Shown piece by piece: positions 17,918 through 34,815 of a stretch of 64,000 nucleotides of DNA. The notes beneath the pieces were generated by a model. That model saw only the letters and a list, made by a program, of their open reading frames with translations. It did not search any database and was not told the DNA's origin. The translations under genes and the position numbers were made by a program. This DNA comes from Gemmatimonadales bacterium (lineage in GTDB: Bacteria > Gemmatimonadota > Gemmatimonadetes > Gemmatimonadales > GWC2-71-9): NCBI GenBank assembly GCA_035517615.1, contig DATIYM010000020.1, positions 68,699-132,698 on the forward strand, in the 5' to 3' direction. Within the stretch, counting starts at the first letter, position 1; each line of letters begins with the position of its first letter.

Positions 17918-18129
17918 CCGGCGAGTTTAGCCGTGTAACCCGCGCGTTCCACCGCGGCGACGAGTTGGCCCGTGGTTACGCTGTCATCCTCGAAATCGAC
18001 GTCCGCCTCTCCCGAGCCCAGATCCACCACTGCCGAGTACACGCCCGCCGTACCGCGCAGGGCGCGCTCCACTTTGGCCTGGCAGTGGCCGCACGTCATG
18101 CCGCTCACCCGCAACTTGATATTCGCCAT
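17914..18129 (-). CDS. copZ: Copper chaperone, heavy-metal-associated domain
   Basis: 71 aa, MANIKLRVSGMTCGHCQAKVERAL (MxCxxC HMA fold). Confidence 0.9.
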   Translation of the reverse strand: MANIKLRVSGMTCGHCQAKVERALRGTAGVYSAVVDLGSGEADVDFEDDSVTTGQLVAAVERAGYTAKLAG

Positions 18130-18189
18130 TGTCCGATCGTCTCCCGCGCTTGCCTTCGCCGCTCTCGACCCCGAGCTTCCCCGTCCACT

Positions 18190-19272
18190 ATGATTGATAA
18201 CATGGCTTCACGCGCCCTTGCTCCCGCTCCGGCGTCGACCTCGACGGCCACGGCCATTCCGGCCGGGCTCACGCGCGAGCAGTTGCTGGAAATGTACCGC
18301 TACCTGCGCCTGACACGCTCGCTCGAGGAACGGCTCACGGCGCTGTACCGTCAGGGGAAGGTGATCGGCGGATTGTTCCGCTCGCTGGGGCAGGAGGGCG
18401 AGTCGGTTGCCTCCGCGTACGCGCTCGAGCGAGGGGAGCACAAGGATTTTCTTTCACCGCTGATCCGGAATCTCGGCGCGATGCTCGTGATGGGCGCGCG
18501 GCCGGTCGAGATTCTCCGGCAGTACATGGCGAAAGCGACCTCCCCCAGCGTGGGCCGCGAGCTGAACGTGCATTTCGGTGATCTCGTGCTGGGGTTTCTC
18601 GGCCAGATCTCGCACCTTGGAGACATGATTCCCGTGATGGCGGGGATCGCACTCTCGTTCAAGATGCGTGGGGAGGCGCGTGTCGCGTTGGTGTACATCG
18701 GGGATGGAGGCATGTCGACCGGCACGTTCCACGAAGGGCTGAGCTTTGCGGCGGTGCAGCGCGTGCCGCTCGTGGTGATCGGCGAGTACAACCAGTGGGC
18801 GTATTCCACTCCGCCGGAACGACAGTTCGCGGCGCAGCATCTCGCCGACCGGGTGCAGGCATACGGGATTCACGCCGAGACCGTGGACGGGAACGACGTA
18901 CTGGGCGTGTACGCCACGACCAAAGCGGCGGTCGCGCGCGCGCGCAGCGGCTTCGGGGTGCAGTTCGTCGAAGTGAAGACCTACCGTCGCAAGGGACACG
19001 CGGAGCACGACAATCAGAGCTACGTTCCGTCCGGCGAGATCGATCGCTGGGCGCGGGAGAATGACCCGATCGATCGATACGTGAAACGCATCGTGGAGCG
19101 TGGTTGGGCGCCGGCCGCCGCGTTGCATGAGATCGATCGCGCCGTCGCCGCCGAGATCGAGACCGCCCTCGTGTCCTGCATCGACGACCCGCCTCCGGAC
19201 GCCGCATCGGCGCTTCCGGGCGTCCTCGCGCACCCGGACGCCGCGCCGCTGCTCTGGTACCGGCGACTCTAG
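18190..19272 (+). CDS. 2-Oxoacid dehydrogenase E1 component, alpha subunit (TPP-dependent; branched-chain/pyruvate type)
   Basis: Start moved to ATG 18190, because the listed ORF start overlaps copZ in antisense. E1-alpha features include the YIGDGGMSTGTFHEGLSFAA TPP motif and YRRKGHAEHD. Confidence 0.85.
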   Translation: MIDNMASRALAPAPASTSTATAIPAGLTREQLLEMYRYLRLTRSLEERLTALYRQGKVIGGLFRSLGQEGESVASAYALERGEHKDFLSPLIRNLGAMLVMGARPVEILRQYMAKATSPSVGRELNVHFGDLVLGFLGQISHLGDMIPVMAGIALSFKMRGEARVALVYIGDGGMSTGTFHEGLSFAAVQRVPLVVIGEYNQWAYSTPPERQFAAQHLADRVQAYGIHAETVDGNDVLGVYATTKAAVARARSGFGVQFVEVKTYRRKGHAEHDNQSYVPSGEIDRWARENDPIDRYVKRIVERGWAPAAALHEIDRAVAAEIETALVSCIDDPPPDAASALPGVLAHPDAAPLLWYRRL

Positions 19273-20252
19273 TGCCCGAGGTGACCTATCTCGAGGCTCT
19301 GCGCCAGGGCCTGCGGGAGGAGATGGAGCACGACGAGCGCGTCTTCATCCTCGGTGAGGATGTCGGGCTGTATGGCGGCGCGTTCAAGGTGACCGAAGGA
19401 TTTCTCGAGCGCTTCGGGGAATCGCGGGTGATCGATACGCCGATCGCCGAGGCAGCCATCGTTGGCGCGGCGGCGGGCGCGGCACACATGGGACTCCGCC
19501 CGGTCGCCGAGATGCAGTTCATCGATTTCATTTCCTGTGCCTACGACATGTTGACGAACTACGTGGCGACGGCGCGCTACCGGGCCGGGCTGCCGACGCC
19601 CATCGTGGTACGGGGACCGTGCGGGGGATACGTCCGGGGTGGTCCGTTTCACTCGCAGAACGTGGAGGCGGCCTTCTTCCACACGCCGGGCCTGAAGATC
19701 GTCTATCCCGCGACCGCGCGAGATGCGAAGGGTCTGATCAAGAGCGCCGTGCGTGATGACGATCCGGTGCTCTATTTGGAACACAAATGGTTGTACCGGC
19801 GGATCAAGGAGACGCTGCCGGAGCAGGAGGAGGTGCTCACACCGATCGGTGCCGCGCGCCTGGCGCGGGAAGGGAAGGACCTTTCCATCATCACCTACGG
19901 CGCGACGGTGTGGAAGTCGCTCGAGGCGGCGACCGAGCTCGCGACCACCGACGGCATCTCGGTGGAGGTGCTCGACCTCCGGACACTGCTGCCGCTCGAC
20001 GACGCGAGCATCATGGCGAGCGTGCGCAAGACCAATAAGGTTCTCATCGTGCACGAGGACACGCGGACCGGAGGGCTCGCGGGGGAAATCACCGCCCGAA
20101 TCAACGAGCAGGCGTTCGAGTGGCTCGATGGTCCAATCATGCGCGTGACCGCGCACGACGTGCCGCTCCCGTACGCGCCCACACTCGAGGACTTCGTGCT
20201 GCCGCAGACGCAGGATATCGTGAAGGCGGCGCGATGGCTCGCCAAATACTAG
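19272..20252 (+). CDS. 2-Oxoacid dehydrogenase E1 component, beta subunit
   Basis: LGEDVGLYGGAFKVTEGF, DTPIAEAAIVGAAAGAA, IVVRGPCGG. The GTG overlaps the upstream TAG by 1 nt. Confidence 0.9.
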   Translation: MPEVTYLEALRQGLREEMEHDERVFILGEDVGLYGGAFKVTEGFLERFGESRVIDTPIAEAAIVGAAAGAAHMGLRPVAEMQFIDFISCAYDMLTNYVATARYRAGLPTPIVVRGPCGGYVRGGPFHSQNVEAAFFHTPGLKIVYPATARDAKGLIKSAVRDDDPVLYLEHKWLYRRIKETLPEQEEVLTPIGAARLAREGKDLSIITYGATVWKSLEAATELATTDGISVEVLDLRTLLPLDDASIMASVRKTNKVLIVHEDTRTGGLAGEITARINEQAFEWLDGPIMRVTAHDVPLPYAPTLEDFVLPQTQDIVKAARWLAKY

Positions 20253-20264
20253 CACGGGTTTGCT

Positions 20265-21584
20265 ATGGCTCGCATTGAAGTGTTGATGCCCCAGATGGGG
20301 GAGTCCATCGCCGAGGGCACCGTCTCGAAGTGGCTCAAGCAGGTGGGCGACGCGGTCGAGCGCGATGAGCCCCTGTTCGAGATCTCGACCGACAAGGTGG
20401 ACGCGGAGATTCCGTCGCCGGCGGCCGGCGTGCTCGCGGAGATGAAGGTGCAGCAGGGACAGACGGTGCCCGTGCAGACGCTCGTCGCGGTGATTGAGAC
20501 TGACAAGGGCGCGACCGTCGCTGCGGCGCCCGCTCCGGCGGCAGCCCCCTCCGCAGCGGCGCCCCCGCCGCGGGCGCCGGCCGCTCCGGGGGTCGCCGCC
20601 TCTGCGGTCGCTCCACAGCCCGTCGCTCCGTTGGCAGTCGCGCCACCCGCCACCGACACCGCCGAAGACCGGCTGCGCAAGAAATCGACGCCCCTGGTAC
20701 GCAAGATCGCCGCCGAGCATCACGTCGACATTGGCGCGATCCCGGGAAGTGGCCTGGGCGGACGTGTCACGAAGCAGGACATCCTGAGTTTCATCGACCA
20801 GCGCCCCACGCGCCCAGCCGCCGCCTCACCGGTAGCCGCTGCACCATCAGCCGCTGCACCATCAGCCGCCGTCGAGCCATGGCCCGGCGACCGTGTCGAG
20901 CCGTTCTCGAAAATCCGGAAGATCACGGCGGATCACATGATCATGTCGCGCCGCATCTCGGCGCACGTGACGAGCTTTTTCGAGGTCGACTACACCCGCG
21001 TGGCGGAGCTGCGCGCGAAGCACAAGGCGTCGTATCTCGAGCGCGGCGTCAAGCTCACGTTTCTCGCGTTCATCGCCAAGGCTTGCGGCGAACAGCTCCG
21101 CAAGCATCCCATCGTGAATGCCGCGGTGGCGGGAGAGCAAATCATCTACCGGGCGGACGTGAACATCGGGATCGCCGTCGCGCTCGACTGGGGGCTGATC
21201 GTCCCGGTGGTGAGGCATGCCGATGAGCTCTCGCTCATCGGTCTCGCGCGCGCGATCAACGATCTCGGCGAGCGGGCCCGCACCAAGAAACTGTCTCCCG
21301 ATGATGTGCAGCGGGGCACGTTCACGATCACGAACCCCGGCGTGTTCGGGTCGTACGCGGGCGCGCCGATCATCAATCAACCCCAGGTCGCGATTCTCGG
21401 CGTCGGTGCCATCGAGCGCCGTCCCAAAGTCGTCGTGCTGGACGGATCGGAAGCGCTGGCGATACGCACCATGGGCATGGTGTCGATGTCGTACGATCAC
21501 CGGGTGGTGGACGGCGCCGACGCCGATCGCTTCCTCGCCGACGTGAAGGTCCTGCTCGAGAATTTCCCCGAAGGCGCCGTGTGA
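20265..21584 (+). CDS. Dihydrolipoamide acyltransferase (E2) with one lipoyl domain
   Basis: Lipoyl-lysine motif EISTDKVDAEIPSP, an Ala/Pro linker, a peripheral-subunit-binding domain (PLVRKIAAEHHVDIGAIPGSGLGGRVTKQDI) and the catalytic SYDHRVVDGA. Confidence 0.9.
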   Translation: MARIEVLMPQMGESIAEGTVSKWLKQVGDAVERDEPLFEISTDKVDAEIPSPAAGVLAEMKVQQGQTVPVQTLVAVIETDKGATVAAAPAPAAAPSAAAPPPRAPAAPGVAASAVAPQPVAPLAVAPPATDTAEDRLRKKSTPLVRKIAAEHHVDIGAIPGSGLGGRVTKQDILSFIDQRPTRPAAASPVAAAPSAAAPSAAVEPWPGDRVEPFSKIRKITADHMIMSRRISAHVTSFFEVDYTRVAELRAKHKASYLERGVKLTFLAFIAKACGEQLRKHPIVNAAVAGEQIIYRADVNIGIAVALDWGLIVPVVRHADELSLIGLARAINDLGERARTKKLSPDDVQRGTFTITNPGVFGSYAGAPIINQPQVAILGVGAIERRPKVVVLDGSEALAIRTMGMVSMSYDHRVVDGADADRFLADVKVLLENFPEGAV

Positions 21585-22201: not shown

Positions 22202-23045
22202 CCTTCACTGCCACTCCACCGCGTCTGACGGGGAGTCGCTACCGGCGGACGTCGTGCGGCACGCGCAACGCGCCGGCTTGTCGGCGATCGCGCTCACCGA
22301 CCACGACACGACCGATGGCGTCGCCGAGGCCGCGCGCGCCGGCGCGCCGCTCGGCGTGCGGGTCATCTGTGCCTGCGAATTCAGCACGCGGGCGCCGTGG
22401 GGCGAGATGCACGTGCTCGGCTACTTTCTCACCGCGGAAGACGATCGGCTTCAGTCCTTTCTGGTCGAGACGCGGGCGGCGCGGCGCCGGCGCGGCGAGC
22501 AGATGGTCGAGAAGCTTCGGCAGCTCGGGCTCGATATCGCCCTTTCCGACGTGGCGGCGCGTGCCGGGGCCGGCGCCGTGGGCCGGCCTCATGTAGCTCG
22601 CGCGCTCGTCGATCGAGGGATCACGCGGGATATCAACGAGGCGTTCGAACGGTTCATTGGGAAGGGACGGGCGGCGTTCGTGGAGAAGCCGCTCCCCACG
22701 CTCGACCACGTGACCGCGCTGGTGCGTGAAGGGGGTGGGCTGTCGGTCGCGGCTCACCTCGGCGATCACGGCACCGAGCCCCAGATTCGCCAGTTCGTCG
22801 AGCAGGGCCTCGATGGCGTCGAGGTCCGCCACCCCAGCCATTCGGTGGCGACCGAGGCCCGGCTCACCCGCATCGCGAATCGCCTCGATCTCGTGATCAG
22901 CGGCGGCTCGGACTGGCACGGAGAAACAGAGTTCGGGACGTCGCACGCCGCTCTCGGAGGTCTCGACATCCCGTCCGCGTGGCTCGAGCGACTCGAGGCG
23001 CGGCGCGATCAACCTTCCACTTCCGTCGCGAAGGGAACCGCATGA
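22101..23045 (+). CDS. PHP-domain phosphoesterase (TrpH/YciV-like); true start uncertain
   Basis: The conserved core begins at VDLHCHSTASDG (nt 22197) and continues ALTDHDT... The only canonical in-frame start is ATG 22101, which overlaps the upstream gene by 101 nt. Confidence 0.7.
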   Translation: MRRCRSCRSTSCDRCSPSLSPHGHPRRAPTAYVDLHCHSTASDGESLPADVVRHAQRAGLSAIALTDHDTTDGVAEAARAGAPLGVRVICACEFSTRAPWGEMHVLGYFLTAEDDRLQSFLVETRAARRRRGEQMVEKLRQLGLDIALSDVAARAGAGAVGRPHVARALVDRGITRDINEAFERFIGKGRAAFVEKPLPTLDHVTALVREGGGLSVAAHLGDHGTEPQIRQFVEQGLDGVEVRHPSHSVATEARLTRIANRLDLVISGGSDWHGETEFGTSHAALGGLDIPSAWLERLEARRDQPSTSVAKGTA

Positions 23046-23482
23046 GCGAATTGCTGCCGGTCGGGTCGAAGGCTCCCGTGTTCGCGGCGCAGGCCTCCGA
23101 TGGTCGGACGTATCGTCTGGAGGACCTGCTCGCCCATCAGCACGTGGCACTCGTGTTCTATCCCGGCAACGATACCCCCGGGTGAAACCGTCAACTCTCC
23201 GCCGTGCGCGATGAGCTGACGTTGTTCACGGGTCGTGGGATTCAGCCGTTCGGGGTCAACCCGGCAGGGCTGGACAGCCACGAGAAATACGTGAAGAAAA
23301 TGAACTTCAATTTCCCGCTGCTCACCGATCCCGATCGCTCCATCGCGCGGGCGTATCATGCGCTGAAGGACGACGACAAGGGCATTCAGCGTACCGTGTA
23401 CGTCGTCAAGCGCGACGGCACGATCGCCTTTGCCCAGCGCGGCGCCCCGCCGGTGAACGACATCGTGGCCGCCGTCGAATAG
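23042..23482 (+). CDS. Bcp/PrxQ-type peroxiredoxin with in-frame TGA at the peroxidatic Cys position (predicted selenocysteine, U48)
   Basis: Listed ORFs 22979..23185 and 23204..23482 are in the same frame, interrupted only by TGA 23183-23185. The merged product reads MSELLPVGSKAPVF...VALVFYPGNDTPG-U-NRQLSAVRDELTLF...NFPLLTDPDRSIARAY, which matches the Bcp pattern FYPxxxTPGCTxxxxxxRD...FxLLSD. The ATGA overlaps the PHP gene stop. Confidence 0.75.
23186..23221 (+). promoter_or_regulatory. Candidate bacterial SECIS hairpin
   Basis: Begins 3 nt after the TGA. cgucaacuc (23189-23197) pairs with gagcugacg (23213-23221): 9 positions with one A-C mismatch. An inner 3-bp helix closes a CGUGC apical loop about 20 nt from the UGA. 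Confidence 0.5.
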
Positions 23483-27636: not shown

Positions 27637-28179
27637 TTACCTCGTCGGCTCGACTCGCAAGCTATCGTTGAATCGATTGAAGTATTCCGTCATGCCGATC
27701 ACGAGCGTGATCTCGACGATCTGCCCGTCGTCCCACGCGCTCCGCAGTCTCGCGAACAGCTCATCCGTCACGTCGTGGCCGGAATGATGCACGACGTCGG
27801 CATACTCGAGTGCGGTACGCCATCCGGGCTCGAGCGCTTGCAGCGCATCCGCCTCGCCCCGATCCTGAATGGCGTCGAGCAGCTCCGCGCTTGCTCCTTT
27901 CCGTCCTGCCAGGACAGTGTGCGAATTCAGTCAGTAGCGGCAGTGGTTGACGTGCGAGAGCCGTACCCACAGCAGCTCCTTCAGCAGTGCGGGGACGGTC
28001 CCTTCATTCATCACGGTGCGGAAATGCGCGATCATCGTTTGCAGGTGGAGCGGCCGGATCGCCACCGTGCGAAACATGTTGGGGACGTTCCCCCTCTCTC
28101 TGAGATACGTCTCAAAGATGGGCCTGACGTCTTCCGGGGCCGCATCGGGGGCGAGGGGCGGGATTCGGGGTGCGTTCAT
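27637..28179 (-). CDS. Carboxymuconolactone decarboxylase / AhpD-family protein with in-frame TGA in the CxxC motif (predicted selenocysteine, C-R-Y-U, U83)
   Basis: Listed ORF 27931..28251 ends ...LSHVNHCRY at TGA 27931-27933. The same frame continues for 97 codons to TAA 27637-27639, reading LNSHTVLAGRKG...WRTALEYADVV...VTDELFARLRSAWDDGQIVEITLVIGMTEYFNRFNDSL, the normal C-terminal half of the CMD/AhpD fold. The result is the family motif CxxCxxxH with U at the second Cys. Start set at ATG 28179 (GGAG upstream); ATG 28251 is also possible. Confidence 0.75.
27901..27917 (-). promoter_or_regulatory. Candidate bacterial SECIS hairpin
   Basis: Minus strand, 13 nt after the UGA: CUGUCCU-GGC-AGGACGG (7 bp including one G-U pair). 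The G-rich apical loop lies about 21-23 nt from the UGA. Confidence 0.45.
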
Positions 28180-28369
28180 GGGCTGTGGCTCCGCGGGGTT
28201 CGCGACTGGGGGTGCCTGGCGCATTATCGTGAGGCGGGGGAGAGCCGTCAAACGGGCTGCAGAACGCGCGGGCCGCCGTATTCTGCGGTAGAAAACGTCC
28301 CATCCTGAACGGCTTTGCTACGCGTTTCAGGGCTGGCCCGCGCTTTGCCTTTCAGGAGGTCGCATCGTT

Positions 28370-28457
28370 CTCCGTCCAGGGCAAACCACGGGTGACCGTG
28401 GGACGCAAAGCCACAGGGTCTCGACGCAATCCGTTGAGACAGCCTAGCCGCCGGGAG
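28370..28457 (+). promoter_or_regulatory. c-di-GMP-I (GEMM-I) riboswitch aptamer candidate in the pilin leader
   Basis: CAGGGCAAACC (28377-87). A perfect 6-bp hairpin CCACGG-GUGA-CCGUGG with a GNRA tetraloop (28386-28401). GGGACGCAAAGCC (28400-12). A 9-bp P3-like hairpin GUCUCGACG-CAAUC-CGUUGAGAC (28418-40). A closing CUCCG / CGG(G)AG P1. This closely parallels my recollection of the V. cholerae Vc2 aptamer: CAGGGCAAACC..GAAA..GGGACGCAAAGCC. Confidence 0.6.
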
Positions 28458-28499
28458 TCGGATCGAAGCGGGCAGTCCGCTTCGGCCCAACACGCTCTC

Positions 28500-28538
28500 A
28501 CGCCCTGCTGAATGGGGCGGAGGGCGTTTGCGTTTTCC
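28500..28538 (+). terminator. Terminator-like expression platform between the aptamer and the pilin RBS
   Basis: ACGCCCU (28500-06) pairs with AGGGCGU (28521-27) and is followed by UUGCGUUUUCC. An alternative partner GGGCG lies at 28515-19. AAGGAGG sits 5 nt before ATG 28562. Confidence 0.45.
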
Positions 28539-28561
28539 TACACTCACTCAAGGAGGAACGC

Positions 28562-28981
28562 ATGTTGGGTCGTCGCGGCTTCACACTCATCGAGCTGCTC
28601 ATCGTGGTGGTCATCATCGGCATTCTCGCCGCCATCGCGATCCCGAAATTCGCCAACACGAAGGAAAAGGCGTACATCGCCTCGATGAAGTCCGACCTTC
28701 GGAACCTGGTTACCGCCGAAGAGGCCTATTTCGCCGACTCAGTGAAGTACTCGACCCAGGTGTCCTGCGCCAATCCGCCCGCCGCGGGTAAGGTGGCGTT
28801 CTGCACGACGACCGGAAACACGCTGGGCACGCCGACGGTGGGCACGGGCACGCAGGCGGGGTGGACGGCGAGCATCACGAACCTCAACACCACGAAGAGC
28901 TGCGCGATCTACGTGGGGGCAGTGACCCCCGCGGCCCCGGGGCAAACTACCGATCCGGAGGGCGCGCCGGTCTGCCGATAA
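28562..28981 (+). CDS. pilA: Type IV pilin (prepilin-type N-terminal cleavage/methylation domain)
   Basis: MLGRRG|FTLIELLIVVVIIGILAAIAIPKF is the class III signal, followed by a hydrophobic alpha-1 helix. 139 aa. Confidence 0.9.
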   Translation: MLGRRGFTLIELLIVVVIIGILAAIAIPKFANTKEKAYIASMKSDLRNLVTAEEAYFADSVKYSTQVSCANPPAAGKVAFCTTTGNTLGTPTVGTGTQAGWTASITNLNTTKSCAIYVGAVTPAAPGQTTDPEGAPVCR

Positions 28982-30583: not shown

Positions 30584-31039
30584 ATGCGAATCACCACCTG
30601 GGGTGAATACGGCCTGATCGTCTCCGTGAGCCTGGCACGGCGGGCGGGAGAAGGTCCGGTCGCCGCTCGGGAGTTGGCTGAGCAGGAGCGGCTGCCCCAT
30701 GATTACGTCGAACAGATCCTGCTGCGCCTGCGGCGTGCGGGTCTGGTGGAGTCGGTTCGGGGAGCCAAGGGCGGCTACCAGCTCGCCCGCTCGCCCGAGC
30801 ATGTCACCGTCAAAGACGTCATTTCCGCCTCAGAGCACGTCACCTTCGAAGTCAACTGCGACGCCCATCCTGTCGACCCGCACCGATGTAGCCGGGACGC
30901 GTCGTGCAGCATCCGGCCGGTGTGGCGGATGCTCGAACAGCGTGTCAACGAGCTGCTGTCGAGCATTTCGCTCGCCGACCTGACGACGCACGACGAGCCG
31001 ACCGTCTATCAGATTACTGGAGTAATGGTCGGGAACTAG
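30584..31039 (+). CDS. Rrf2-family transcriptional regulator (IscR/CymR-like, three clustered Cys)
   Basis: MRITTWGEYGLIVSVSLA...LVESVRGAKGGYQLAR winged helix-turn-helix. A C-x9-C-x6-C cluster (CDAHPVDPHRCSRDASC). Confidence 0.85.
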   Translation: MRITTWGEYGLIVSVSLARRAGEGPVAARELAEQERLPHDYVEQILLRLRRAGLVESVRGAKGGYQLARSPEHVTVKDVISASEHVTFEVNCDAHPVDPHRCSRDASCSIRPVWRMLEQRVNELLSSISLADLTTHDEPTVYQITGVMVGN

Positions 31040-31071
31040 CCTCACTACAACATCGTTTTTTTTCTGATCCC

Positions 31072-31096
31072 AAACCCGACTGGCGACGTCGGGTTT
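31072..31096 (+). terminator. Hairpin between the Rrf2 gene and the rhodanese gene (terminator or attenuator candidate)
   Basis: aaacccgac (31072-80) pairs with gtcgggttt (31088-96) around a 7-nt loop. A T8 run lies 8 nt upstream (31056-63). Confidence 0.4.
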
Positions 31097-31128
31097 CGAT
31101 CTCGTATTTGGATCACAGGGGAGACACT

Positions 31129-31980
31129 ATGGTGGACTACGCGCATCCGGAGGTGCTGGTCTCGACAGCATGGGTCGGCGAGCATCTCCATGATCCCGAC
31201 ATCCGGCTGATCGAAGTCGATGTCGACACGACGGCATACGATTCGGGCCACATCGAGGGAGCGGTGGGCTGGAACTGGCAGTCACAGCTCAACGACCGGC
31301 TGCGGCGCGACATTCCCGACGCGCGCGCATTTGCGGACCTACTGAGCGCGGCTGGAGTGACGCCGAAGACTGCGGTCGTGCTGTACGGAGACAACAACAA
31401 CTGGTTCGCCGCGTTCGCATTCTGGCTGCTGCAGCTGTACGGCCACAAGCGCGTGCGGCTGATGAACGGTGGACGCGCGAAGTGGGTTGCCGAGCAGCGC
31501 GCGCTCGTCACCGCGCCAGCCAACGTAGCGCGCACGAACTATCCCGCGCCAAAGCGGGCCAACACCGCGCTGCGCGCCAAGCGCCCGGATATCGAGCGGG
31601 CGCTGCGCGGCAAGTCGATCGGTCTCGTGGATGTGCGTTCGCCCGCCGAATTCGTGGGCGATATCGTTGCTCCGCCAGGAATGACCGAAACCGCACAACG
31701 CGCGGGCCACATTCCCGGCGCGCACAACGTGCCCTGGGCTCAGGCGGTGGCTCCCGATGGCACATTCAAACCGCGCGAAGAGTTGGAGCGCTTGTATCGT
31801 CAGGCGGGCGTGCTCGACCGTGACGAGGTCATCGCGTACTGCCGCATCGGCGAACGCTCGAGCCACACGTGGTTCGCGCTCAAATACCTGCTCGGCGTGG
31901 ACAAGGTCCGAAATTATGATGGCTCGTGGACCGAGTGGGGCAATCTGATCGGGGCGCCAATTGTGAAGGGGAGCGAGTGA
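31129..31980 (+). CDS. sseA: Two-domain rhodanese, thiosulfate/3-mercaptopyruvate sulfurtransferase (SseA-like)
   Basis: Start moved to ATG 31129 (GGGGAG upstream). HIEGAVGWNW, HIPGAHNVPW and the active-site loop CRIGERSS. Confidence 0.85.
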   Translation: MVDYAHPEVLVSTAWVGEHLHDPDIRLIEVDVDTTAYDSGHIEGAVGWNWQSQLNDRLRRDIPDARAFADLLSAAGVTPKTAVVLYGDNNNWFAAFAFWLLQLYGHKRVRLMNGGRAKWVAEQRALVTAPANVARTNYPAPKRANTALRAKRPDIERALRGKSIGLVDVRSPAEFVGDIVAPPGMTETAQRAGHIPGAHNVPWAQAVAPDGTFKPREELERLYRQAGVLDRDEVIAYCRIGERSSHTWFALKYLLGVDKVRNYDGSWTEWGNLIGAPIVKGSE

Positions 31981-32930
31981 AAACGGCGGCGGATCGGCGG
32001 ACCGGCGGACCGGCGGTCCGTGGAGACTTCATCGAGCCGATATTGTGGAGTCTTGTTGGGAACACGCCGTTGCTCCCGCTCGATCCGCCGATCCGCCCAT
32101 CCGCCGGTCCGCCCGTCTTTCTCAAGGCCGAGTGGTTCAATCCGGGCGGCAGCGTCAAGGATCGGCCGGCCCTGTTCATTTTGCGTGATGGAGTGGCGCG
32201 ACGCGCGCTGCCGGGAAAGCGCCTGCTCGATGCCACGAGCGGGAATACCGGCATCGCGTACGCGATGCTCGGAGCCGCGGCCGGCATTGGCGTGACGCTG
32301 TGTGTGCCGGCAAACGCCAGCGTTGAGCGCAAGGTGCTGCTCGAGGCCTACGGCGCCGACGTCATCTACACCGATCCACTCGAGGGGACGGATGGCGCGA
32401 TCCGCCGCGCGCAGTCGCTTGCGGCCGCGGAGCCCGACCGCTACTGGTACGCCGACCAGTACAACAATCCCGCGAACCCGGAAGCGCACGCGATCACCAC
32501 CGCTCAGGAGATCTGGCGTCAGACCGAAGGCCGCGTCACGCGGCTCGTCGCCGGACTGGGCACGACCGGAACGCTCATGGGAACGGGTCGGCGGCTGCGC
32601 GAGCTGAGCCCGAACATCGAGTTGGTCGCGGTCCAGCCCGAGGGGCCGTTTCACGGGCTCGAAGGTCTCAAGCATCTGGCTACCGCCATCGTCCCCGGCA
32701 TCTACAATCCCTCGATTCCCGACCGCACGGAGTTCGTCGCCACCGAGGCTGCCGAAGCCATGGTGCGCCGACTGGCGCGTGAGGCCGGGCTATTTGTGGG
32801 CTGGTCAGCCGGTGCCGCCGTGGTCGCGGCCGAGCGGCTTCCGGGCTCCGCGCTGACCGTCGTGATTGCCCCCGATTCGGGCATGCGCTACCTGAGCGAG
32901 CGCGAGCGGGTCGAGGGCACCGCGCTATGA
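31977..32930 (+). CDS. cysM: PLP-dependent cysteine synthase, CysM-like (thiocarboxylate-dependent candidate)
   Basis: The GTGA start overlaps the sseA stop. LVGNTPLL, NPGGSVKDRPA (PLP lysine), ATSGNTGIAYA. Confidence 0.85.
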   Translation: MKTAADRRTGGPAVRGDFIEPILWSLVGNTPLLPLDPPIRPSAGPPVFLKAEWFNPGGSVKDRPALFILRDGVARRALPGKRLLDATSGNTGIAYAMLGAAAGIGVTLCVPANASVERKVLLEAYGADVIYTDPLEGTDGAIRRAQSLAAAEPDRYWYADQYNNPANPEAHAITTAQEIWRQTEGRVTRLVAGLGTTGTLMGTGRRLRELSPNIELVAVQPEGPFHGLEGLKHLATAIVPGIYNPSIPDRTEFVATEAAEAMVRRLAREAGLFVGWSAGAAVVAAERLPGSALTVVIAPDSGMRYLSERERVEGTAL

Positions 32931-33379
32931 CGCTGTTCCTGGACGCGAACTTCGTCGCGGCAATTCGCCGCCAGGGCGAAGCGGACTATCCACGAGAGAC
33001 CTGTGGCCTGATGGCGGGATCAAAGCGAGGCGAGAGCACGCGCGTGACGCGTCTCGTTCCCGTGACCAACACCCGGACCGATTCGGCGCACAATCGCTAT
33101 CTTATCGACCCAGAAGAATACCGGCGGGCGCAGATCGAGCTCGACGCCGCGGGTCTCGAGATCGTCGGTATCTATCATTCGCACCCCGACCACCCGGCGC
33201 AGCCATCCGAGTTCGATCGGGAACATGCGCTGCCGTGGTGGAGCTATGTGATTGTGAGAGTCGCGGCGGGACATGCGCAGGAGGTTCGCAGTTGGCGACT
33301 CGTGGACGATCGTTCGATGTTTCAAGAGGAATCCATAACGCAAGACGAACGGAAGGTTGCATGGCAGTCACCGTCCTGA
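32927..33379 (+). CDS. mec: JAMM/MPN+ metallopeptidase (Mec-like)
   Basis: ETCGLMAG plus the HSHPDHPAQPSEFD JAMM motif (E...HxHx7Sx2D). ATGA overlap with cysM. Confidence 0.85.
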   Translation: MTLFLDANFVAAIRRQGEADYPRETCGLMAGSKRGESTRVTRLVPVTNTRTDSAHNRYLIDPEEYRRAQIELDAAGLEIVGIYHSHPDHPAQPSEFDREHALPWWSYVIVRVAAGHAQEVRSWRLVDDRSMFQEESITQDERKVAWQSPS

Positions 33380-34815
33380 TCCCCACTCCACTCCGTCCGT
33401 TTGTAAACGGAAAAGACGCCGTCCAGCTGGAAGGCGGCAGCGTACGCGAGCTGCTCGAGCGGCTCACGCGCGACCATGCCGAGCTCGGCCGCCATCTATT
33501 TGCCGAAGACGGGCGGCTGCGGAGCTTCGTGAACGTGTACGTGAACGATCGGGACATCCGCCATCTGGCGCAGCAGGACACGCGCGTGAGCGCGGGCGAT
33601 ACGGTGTCGATCATCCCCAGCATCGCGGGTGGGGCGGGAACGATCAGCGTCACGCGCAAGCCCGCCGCGGCCCGGTCGCTTCCCAAGCTTTCGCACGAAG
33701 AAATTCTGCGCTATTCGCGCCATCTCATTCTCCCCGACGTGGGACTCGAGGGCCAGCGCAAACTCAAGGCGGCTCGCGTTCTGCTCATCGGCGCCGGTGG
33801 ACTCGGCTCGCCTGCCGCCCTGTATCTGGCCGCGGCGGGCGTCGGCACGATTGGCCTCGTGGACTTTGACGTCGTGGACTCGACCAATCTCCAGCGTCAG
33901 ATCGTGCACGGCACATCGACGGTGGGCGTGTCCAAACTCGAATCGGCGCGGCGCCGCATCAGGGATTTGAATCCGAACGTGCAGGTCGAGGGATTCGAGA
34001 CGCGGCTTACCTCCGAGAACGCGCTCGACATCATCAAGGATTTCGACATCGTCGCCGACGGAACGGACAATTTCGCCACCCGCTATCTCGTGAACGATGC
34101 CTGCGTGCTGCTCGGCAAACCGAACGTGTACGGCTCGATTTTCCGCTTCGAGGGACAGGCGTCGGTGTTCTATGCCAAACAAGGGCCGTGCTATCGCTGC
34201 CTCTATCCCGAGCCGCCGCCTCCGGGACTCGTCCCGTCCTGCGCGGAGGGCGGCGTGCTGGGGGTGCTGCCCGGAATCGTGGGCTCGATTCAGGCGCTCG
34301 AAGCGATCAAACTGGTGATCGGCAACGGCGAGACCCTCATCGGTCGACTGGTGCTGTTCGACGCGCTGCGGCTCAAGTTCCGCGAGCTGAAGCTCGAAAA
34401 GGATCCCAATTGCCCCATCTGCGGCCGGAATCCGACGATCACCTCGCTCATCGACTACGAGGCGTTCTGCGGCGTCACGCCGGAGCCTGGGTATCCCGGC
34501 GCCGAGGTGACCGCGCTCGATCTGAAGGAAGAGATCGACGCCGGCAAGCCGATCGTGGTGCTCGACGTACGCGAGCCGCACGAAGCGGAAATCGCGACCA
34601 TCGAGGGCGCCAAGCTCATTCCGCTTGGTGAGCTCCCCGATCGGTTACGTGAACTCGATGACCACGCCGAGATCGTCACTCATTGTCATCATGGTGCCCG
34701 CGCCGCCAAGGCGCTCGAGATTCTCCGGGCCGCGGGATTCCAGAAGGCCCGAATGCTGGCGGGTGGGATCGACGCGTGGGCGGTAAATGTGGATCCGGAG
34801 ATGCCTAGGTACTAA
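33361..34815 (+). CDS. Fusion protein: CysO/MoaD/ThiS-like beta-grasp sulfur carrier (aa 1-91, ends GG) + MoeB/ThiF E1-like adenylyltransferase + C-terminal rhodanese (MoeZ-like)
   Basis: ATG 33361 (GGAAGG upstream). The N-terminal 91 aa read MAVTVLIPTPLRPF...GDTVSIIPSIAGG (GG codons at 33628-33633). The frame continues without a stop into LSHEEILRYSRHLILPDVGLEGQRKLKAARVLLIGAGGLGSP, CYRC, CAEGGVLG, CPIC and the rhodanese loop CHHGARA. Confidence 0.8.
   Translation: MAVTVLIPTPLRPFVNGKDAVQLEGGSVRELLERLTRDHAELGRHLFAEDGRLRSFVNVYVNDRDIRHLAQQDTRVSAGDTVSIIPSIAGGAGTISVTRKPAAARSLPKLSHEEILRYSRHLILPDVGLEGQRKLKAARVLLIGAGGLGSPAALYLAAAGVGTIGLVDFDVVDSTNLQRQIVHGTSTVGVSKLESARRRIRDLNPNVQVEGFETRLTSENALDIIKDFDIVADGTDNFATRYLVNDACVLLGKPNVYGSIFRFEGQASVFYAKQGPCYRCLYPEPPPPGLVPSCAEGGVLGVLPGIVGSIQALEAIKLVIGNGETLIGRLVLFDALRLKFRELKLEKDPNCPICGRNPTITSLIDYEAFCGVTPEPGYPGAEVTALDLKEEIDAGKPIVVLDVREPHEAEIATIEGAKLIPLGELPDRLRELDDHAEIVTHCHHGARAAKALEILRAAGFQKARMLAGGIDAWAVNVDPEMPRY

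Follow-up and report, generated by a model that had tools for sequence, protein, structure and literature searches.

We describe a gene on the minus strand of a 64,000-nucleotide stretch of DNA from a Gemmatimonadales bacterium (contig DATIYM010000020.1; hereafter the window) that very probably encodes a 180-residue AhpD-like thiol/selenol oxidoreductase in which an in-frame UGA, codon 83, is translated as selenocysteine (Sec). The complete gene (27637..28179, read from 28179 to 27637) comprises 180 sense codons, Sec83 included, and is closed by a TAA at 27637–27639. The Sec reading of the TGA is strongly supported by comparison with relatives, specifically by the conserved TGA itself, the constrained reading frame downstream, covariation in the hairpin that follows, the alternation of Cys and Sec at this position, and the conservation of fold and active-site motif.

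Gene structure and reading frame

Translation is predicted to begin at an ATG (28177–28179), the same Met at which the orthologs begin, and proceeds as MNAPRIPPL...LSHVNHCRY to a TGA at 27931–27933. The frame then stays open for another 97 codons, LNSHTVLAGRKG...FNRFNDSLRVEPTR, as far as the TAA. These coordinates were all correct in the initial annotation of the window, as was its observation that GC content at third codon positions (GC3) remains high beyond the TGA. We measured a GC3 of 0.83 upstream and 0.75 downstream of this codon; if the downstream part is read in either shifted frame, GC3 is 0.69 or 0.43. The accompanying statement that the list of open reading frames (ORFs) is empty between 27640 and 27930 on this strand is only approximately true, as the mechanical list holds two minus-strand entries that overlap this interval. 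One is a 51-aa ORF with a GTG start in the same frame as the gene (27637..27792), and the other is a 69-aa ORF in a different frame (27761..27970). Reading the TGA as Sec makes it the second redox residue of C80-R-Y-U83 and restores the catalytic signature C80-R-Y-U83-L-N-S-H87, again as initially proposed.

With respect to the window as a whole, a scan for pairs of high-GC3 ORFs split by a TGA returned the AhpD-like gene as its sole match at the thresholds used. The upstream part of the peroxiredoxin gene described below fell under those thresholds, and that gene was hence missed. TGA is also the stop codon of 21 of the 30 ordinary long high-GC3 genes in the window, which indicates that there is no genome-wide reassignment of this codon and that its recoding is site-specific.

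Conservation of the TGA and of the downstream half

Relatives were gathered by a genome scan with one genome per species, which gave 65 loci, all from metagenome-assembled genomes of Gemmatimonadales/Gemmatimonadota and 53–82% identical at the protein level, and by a scan of soil metagenomes, from which 80 loci were kept. Across these 145 independent loci, codon 83 is TGA in 142 and TGC or TGT in only 3. Of the 65 genome loci, 63 have TGA and the other two TGC (L034) and TGT (L041), and of the 80 metagenome loci, 79 have TGA and one TGC (L135). Two of the TGA orthologs, L058 and L064, lie on the Gemmatimonadota chromosomes CP070666.1 and CP070792.1. The frame remains open for 94–107 codons past codon 83 in 143 loci. 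Moreover, the two halves of the gene are under very similar constraint when compared with the window sequence: nonsynonymous and synonymous divergence (pN and pS) are 0.157 and 0.601 downstream of the TGA (ratio 0.26) and 0.141 and 0.626 upstream (ratio 0.23), and amino-acid identity is 75% downstream versus 77% upstream. This conservation of the TGA, together with the constraint on the codons beyond it, rules out that the TGA is a sequencing error, that the gene is a pseudogene, or that the functional product is truncated. The view taken in the initial annotation, namely that the TGA is no sequencing error and that the region after it is homologous and coding, is thus borne out by the independent loci, by the purifying selection on the downstream half, and by profile alignments that span the TGA.

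Public Gemmatimonadales genomes hold orthologs up to 82% identical to the window protein. Protein-database homologs are 69–78% identical and 177–181 aa long, and all come from Gemmatimonadales and carry Cys at column 83; this column is an invariant Cys in 30 Cys-form homologs. No full-length Sec form was found among the best matches listed. One NCBI entry of 103 aa (P0090) joins the first ~60 residues typical of the AhpD-like family directly to the last ~40, and probably reflects a faulty gene model at a TGA-containing ortholog.

A hairpin that accompanies the TGA

A hairpin resembling a bacterial Sec insertion sequence (SECIS), CUGUCCU-GGC-AGGACGG (27901..27917, minus strand), starts 13 nt after the UGA, exactly where it had been placed by the initial annotation. 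Its 7 bp are formed by a 5′ arm at 27917–27911 and a 3′ arm at 27907–27901, which enclose a GGC loop at 27910–27908. When 62 TGA-bearing copies are aligned without gaps, 99.5% of cells across the seven pairs show standard pairing. Three of the pairs swap between U-A and C-G (in 23, 26 and 12 sequences). The resulting covariation score of 0.411 compares with 0.227 in shuffles and was reached by none of 500 shuffled alignments, and sliding the hairpin along the alignment as a control lowers pairing to 35–61%. Unconstrained RNAalifold predicts exactly the same helix. The stem occurs in 16 different sequences over the full set of loci, and the GGC loop is unchanged in 139 of 139 copies. Where one arm changes synonymously, the covarying change in the other arm alters the amino acid (Q/R, V/A, R/G), which argues that selection acts on the RNA. 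An alternative form with 6 bp and a UGGCA pentaloop arises if the closing U-A/U-G pair opens. A flanking CCC/GGG lower stem was considered and rejected, as column 15 varies freely although the G opposite it is invariant, and this extension is absent from the RNAalifold prediction.

Bacterial SECIS elements have been described as lying within the coding region, immediately 3′ of the UGA, with a guanosine in a small apical loop (PMC1088965). The position of the hairpin and its small, G-containing loop fit this description.

A natural control is provided by Cys forms of the gene, of which ten were available: L034, L041 and L135 from the scans and seven more fetched via protein identifiers (L146–L152). 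These make up a Cys-bearing minority clade in which the hairpin has been lost. Only 1–5 of the 7 pairs are kept in the Cys forms (mean 3.6), compared with a mean of 6.97 in the Sec forms, and the hairpin is missing even where the encoded peptide (TVLARQ, TVLARR or TALARR) is the same as in Sec forms. The folding energy of the region from +3 to +48 does not separate the two groups (−16.8 kcal/mol for Sec and −17.0 kcal/mol for Cys forms), so that it is the specific hairpin, and not overall folding, that goes with the TGA. Taken together, the compensatory changes among TGA-bearing copies and the loss of pairing in Cys forms uphold the earlier proposal of this hairpin as a SECIS candidate.

A second TGA-interrupted redox gene in the same genomes

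The initial annotation had also pointed to another selenoprotein gene, and this prediction is well supported. An AhpC/TSA-family peroxiredoxin gene (23042..23482, plus strand) lies 4.5 kb away and contains a TGA at 23183–23185 in the context ...DTPG-U-NRQ.... With U written as C, its product matches Pfam AhpC-TSA at 108.8 bits. The TGA occupies the position of the peroxidatic Cys and is present in 43 of the 43 loci that include the gene. The 30 nt after the TGA are almost invariant, synonymous sites included, and third-position entropy is ~0 in codons +4 to +8 after the UGA. Folding after this UGA predicts a bulged hairpin that has a CGU loop (candidate at 23195–23215). The apical loop lies at a similar distance from the UGA in the two genes, as had been claimed: 17 nt in the peroxiredoxin gene versus 20 nt in the AhpD-like gene. 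That these genomes contain two independent redox genes, each conserved and each interrupted by TGA, is strong indirect evidence of Sec decoding. In L034 and L041 the AhpD-like gene has Cys and the peroxiredoxin gene still has TGA, which suggests that the exchange of Sec for Cys is gene-specific and that the Sec trait itself was not lost.

Protein family, fold and active site

For the profile comparisons, the read-through protein was written with C in place of U. The protein exceeds the cutoffs of both Pfam CMD (PF02627; 35.1 bits, cutoff 23) and the AhpD core domain model TIGR00778 ahpD_dom (42.5 bits, cutoff 27.8). The expectation that a profile search would give full-length coverage across the TGA proved sound, in that positions 2–175 of 178 of TIGR01926 ('peroxidase-related enzyme'; 68.1 bits) and 3–172 of 179 of NF053654 ('YciW-related (seleno)protein'; 78.9 bits), the top-scoring NCBIfam model, are aligned across this codon. 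Likewise, residues 7–178 align with Protein Data Bank entries 2oyo, 2prr, 6k40 and 2pfx, which are 'uncharacterized peroxidase-related proteins' and AhpD proteins, at E-values of 2e-10 to 5e-7 and with CxxC on CxxC.

For structural comparison we modelled a Cys ortholog, P0001, which is 78% identical to the window protein, and not the window protein itself. The AlphaFold2 model of P0001 (pLDDT 95.4) gives template modelling scores of 0.85–0.87 to 2pfx, 6k40, 2prr and 2oyo. Its redox-motif helix spans residues 81–93, across the TGA position, and is followed by five further helices. With the motif helix and five more helices lying beyond codon 80, an 82-residue product would be expected to lack most of the fold.

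The catalytic segment (27919..27978, minus strand) reads Glu68...Cys80-Arg-Tyr82-Sec83-Leu-Asn-Ser-His87, or E-x11-C-x-Y-U-x3-H. Glu68, Cys80, Tyr82, position 83 and His87 show no variation in 31 homologs. We take the nucleophile of M. tuberculosis AhpD to be its second Cys, Cys133, the position that is held by Sec in the window protein. The proton relay residues of M. tuberculosis AhpD are Glu118/Cys130/His132/Cys133/His137, and those of PA0269 from P. aeruginosa are Glu36/Cys48/Tyr50/Cys51/His55 (PMC3141380). Judged from its sequence, the read-through product is a full-length AhpD-like 'peroxidase-related' protein whose predicted Glu/Cys/Tyr/Sec/His relay is intact.

Proposed function and competing explanations

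By analogy with the standard bacterial pathway, the 7-bp GGC-loop hairpin would act as a bacterial SECIS that recruits SelB·GTP·Sec-tRNA(Sec) to the ribosome, and Sec would be inserted at the UGA in place of termination. The C80/U83 pair, backed by Glu68, Tyr82 and His87, presumably cycles between selenol/thiol and selenenylsulfide states. In doing so the product may reduce peroxides or a partner protein, of which the Sec-peroxiredoxin of the same cluster appears the likeliest. More speculatively, electrons might come from the flavoprotein reductase of the cluster or from a lipoyl-E2 encoded just upstream. A broader scheme would have the peroxiredoxin and the AhpD-like protein form an all-selenium relay throughout the order, with the Sec-peroxiredoxin recycled by the CxxU AhpD-like protein and the latter fed by the thioredoxin-reductase-like flavoprotein or lipoyl-E2. 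We regard this scheme as doubtful. If true, it would be the selenium counterpart of the mycobacterial AhpC/AhpD/lipoamide system, in which lipoamide serves as the donor. The protein could also be a deiodinase-like reductive dehalogenase, a suggestion that comes from its likeness in fold to the debrominase Bmp8.

Several observations limit or weigh against the reading of the gene as one for an AhpD-like selenoprotein. A 97-codon open frame has, by our own estimate, a chance of roughly 10% in DNA of 66% GC if the sequence is taken alone. The hairpin by itself is thermodynamically unexceptional, with single-sequence fold z-scores of −0.76 (39 nt) and +0.70 (71 nt), and its 3-nt loop is presumably smaller than that of the classic E. 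coli fdhF element. In the window sequence alone, then, neither the open frame nor the hairpin is beyond chance; the significance of both signals comes from homology and the 145 related loci, not from the single sequence. The read-through protein also stays below the curated cutoff of TIGR01926 (68.1 versus 81.8 bits) and far below the equivalog cutoff of NF053654 (78.9 versus 310 bits). With respect to the decoding machinery, selA, selB, selD and tRNA-Sec were not found in the 64-kb window and ~700 kb of related flanks. Specifically, no tRNA-Sec was detected in the window by ARAGORN or Rfam, nor in 60 related loci by ARAGORN; no selA, selB or selD was recognized among the 30 long ORFs of the window with NCBIfam and Pfam; and scans for SelD, SelA and SelB signature motifs over 768 kb gave only two spurious out-of-frame matches. 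Finally, no mention of Sec use in Gemmatimonadota was found in the literature searched.

The simplest competing explanation is a pseudogene or an error of sequencing or assembly, whereby a TGC or TGT Cys codon has turned into, or been misread as, TGA, leaving an 82-residue fragment or nothing. A change from TGC to TGA takes one base, Cys occupies column 83 in every full-length homolog from the database, and gene callers do end the gene at the TGA. This explanation nonetheless has almost no credence in view of the TGA found in 142 of 145 independently assembled loci, which differ by enough (53–82% identity, from different studies) that they are no copies of one faulty assembly. It likewise fails to account for purifying selection that is as strong on the 97 downstream codons as on the upstream half, or for a covarying hairpin found alongside the TGA but lacking in Cys forms. 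Scarcely more plausible is that the locus makes two products: translation would stop at the TGA to give an 82-residue N-terminal protein, and would start internally, for example at the GTG at 27792, to give a separate C-terminal one. The 51-aa ORF in the frame of the gene (27637..27792) would correspond to the latter. Codons 84–129, which precede this GTG, are conserved and constrained; the solved relatives and the AlphaFold2 model are one continuous 10-helix domain, with the CxxC helix (81–93) crossing the TGA; and the Cys forms are single 180-aa proteins.

The remaining alternative, which we consider improbable though somewhat less so than the other two, accepts that the UGA is recoded but to an amino acid other than Sec, through a hairpin-aided near-cognate tRNA (Trp, Cys or Arg) or a variant code. 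Downstream hairpins presumably can stimulate stop-codon read-through in general, and the failure to find Sec machinery in the window or the related flanks would be in keeping with such an event. A global reassignment is at odds with the use of TGA as terminator by 21 of the 30 long genes in the window. Moreover, the recoded position aligns with Cys only, the classic counterpart of Sec, and lies inside a redox CxxC motif, and a second gene in the same genomes has TGA at the position of a peroxidatic Cys. The location of the hairpin and its small, G-containing apical loop also match those of bacterial SECIS elements (PMC1088965). The evidence is thus most consistent with translation of UGA83 as Sec.

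Genomic context

The gene forms part of a cluster that is conserved across the order. This cluster comprises genes for a PHP-domain protein, the AhpC/TSA peroxiredoxin, two SDRs and a thioredoxin-reductase-like flavoprotein; an MBL-fold hydrolase, an LPG_synthase_TM membrane protein, the AhpD-like protein and an aspartase/fumarase-class lyase; and an Rrf2 regulator, a rhodanese, a cysteine synthase, a JAMM protease and a MoeB/ThiS-like protein. No ahpC adjoins the AhpD-like gene; the Sec-peroxiredoxin gene is 4.5 kb off, in a cluster conserved in 43 loci.

In most of the related loci (L001–L065) the AhpD-like gene points the same way as the genes around it, and in the window (at 27637–28981), L001 and L026 it alone is inverted. 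The inverted copy in the window has a promoter-like site of its own, a sigma-70-like match (TTGACG-17-GATAAT, 10/12) at 28223..28251 on the minus strand, 44 nt upstream of the ATG. The consensus scan found this one match where 0.2 were expected, and as it reflects likeness to the consensus only, the site is a candidate promoter. Between the AhpD-like gene and the lyase gene, the window and L001 carry an inserted pilin-like gene. In the window this is a type IV pilin-like gene (28562–28981, plus strand) with an N-terminal methylation motif, and ~100 nt upstream of it lies a c-di-GMP-I riboswitch (RF01051; 28370–28455, plus strand; 52.2 bits, gathering score 35).

Further along the plus strand, 30584–34815 encodes the Rrf2 regulator, the rhodanese, the cysteine synthase (PALP), the JAMM/Mov34 protease and a MoeB/ThiF-like protein with an N-terminal ThiS-like extension, a group that looks like a sulfur-carrier-protein module for cysteine biosynthesis. 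Just upstream of the PHP/peroxiredoxin end of the cluster, 17965–21584 (plus strand) encodes E1-alpha, E1-beta and lipoyl-E2 of a 2-oxoacid dehydrogenase complex. As pure speculation, this lipoyl-E2 could be a lipoamide electron source for the AhpD-type protein.

Significance and comparison with known systems

In practical terms, standard gene callers cut the AhpD-like gene short at codon 82, and both this gene and the peroxiredoxin gene are probably annotated wrongly throughout this order of abundant soil bacteria. Our results point to widespread Sec decoding among soil Gemmatimonadales, and the loss of the SECIS hairpin on reversion from Sec to Cys offers a clean natural experiment. We view our results as a correction of annotation and an example of co-evolution between SECIS and Sec. 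They add nothing new on selenoprotein families or on the mechanism of Sec insertion, and the biology is ordinary.

AhpD-like selenoproteins are long known. An 'AhpD-like protein' (COG2128, CxxU) was reported in 2005 as a new selenoprotein family, with 27 sequences, in Sargasso Sea data (PMC1088965). In the survey of Global Ocean Sampling data, 'AhpD-like 1' ranked fourth in abundance among 51 selenoprotein families, with 299 genes (PMC2398784). A 2026 review lists 'AhpD-like protein, TIGR01926, CxxU', as well as a CMD-like CxxU family and NF041238 (PMC13188914). The sequence comparisons place the window gene as a new, apparently unannotated member clade of these AhpD-like CxxU selenoproteins; what seems to be unrecorded is the taxon and the annotation. 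The window protein shares with the COG2128/TIGR01926 family its fold, the CxxU motif with Sec as second residue, widespread Cys homologs, a SECIS hairpin directly after the UGA whose small apical loop contains a G, and co-occurrence with a Prx-like selenoprotein gene, which had already been reported for the family. The window clade differs in that it comes from soil Gemmatimonadales and not from marine plankton, and in that it scores under the TIGR01926 cutoff. NF053654 'GroundWater_YciW' and NF041238 AhpD_rel_CFYUT are also AhpD-related, and NCBI flags both models as including selenoproteins whose motif is of the C-x-Y-U type. However, scores of 78.9 versus a cutoff of 310 and 28 versus 175, respectively, make the window protein a relative of these families and not a member. 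It would function in the manner of the known AhpD-like proteins, and as none of the specific NCBIfam models scores it above its curated cutoff, we file it as a new or sister clade within the broader AhpD-like group.

The hairpin resembles bacterial SECIS elements such as that of E. coli fdhF in being a coding-sequence stem-loop located shortly downstream of the UGA, with a guanosine in a small loop and a stem that is free to vary if it stays paired. It differs in being very compact and in having no bulged U that we could identify; binding by SelB is putative. In terms of the active site, M. tuberculosis AhpD and PA0269 have the same relay spacing, Glu-x11-Cys-x-(His/Tyr)-Cys-x3-His, of which the window protein represents the PA0269 variant with Tyr; both have a second Cys where the window protein has Sec. 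The structural match to M. tuberculosis AhpD is weak (1lw1, E 0.37, for the P0001 model), and its close structural relatives are instead the single-domain 'peroxidase-related' proteins of 180–190 aa, 2pfx, 6k40, 2prr and 2oyo. Finally, unlike in the canonical AhpC/AhpD system, no gene for an AhpC-type 2-Cys peroxiredoxin adjoins the window gene.

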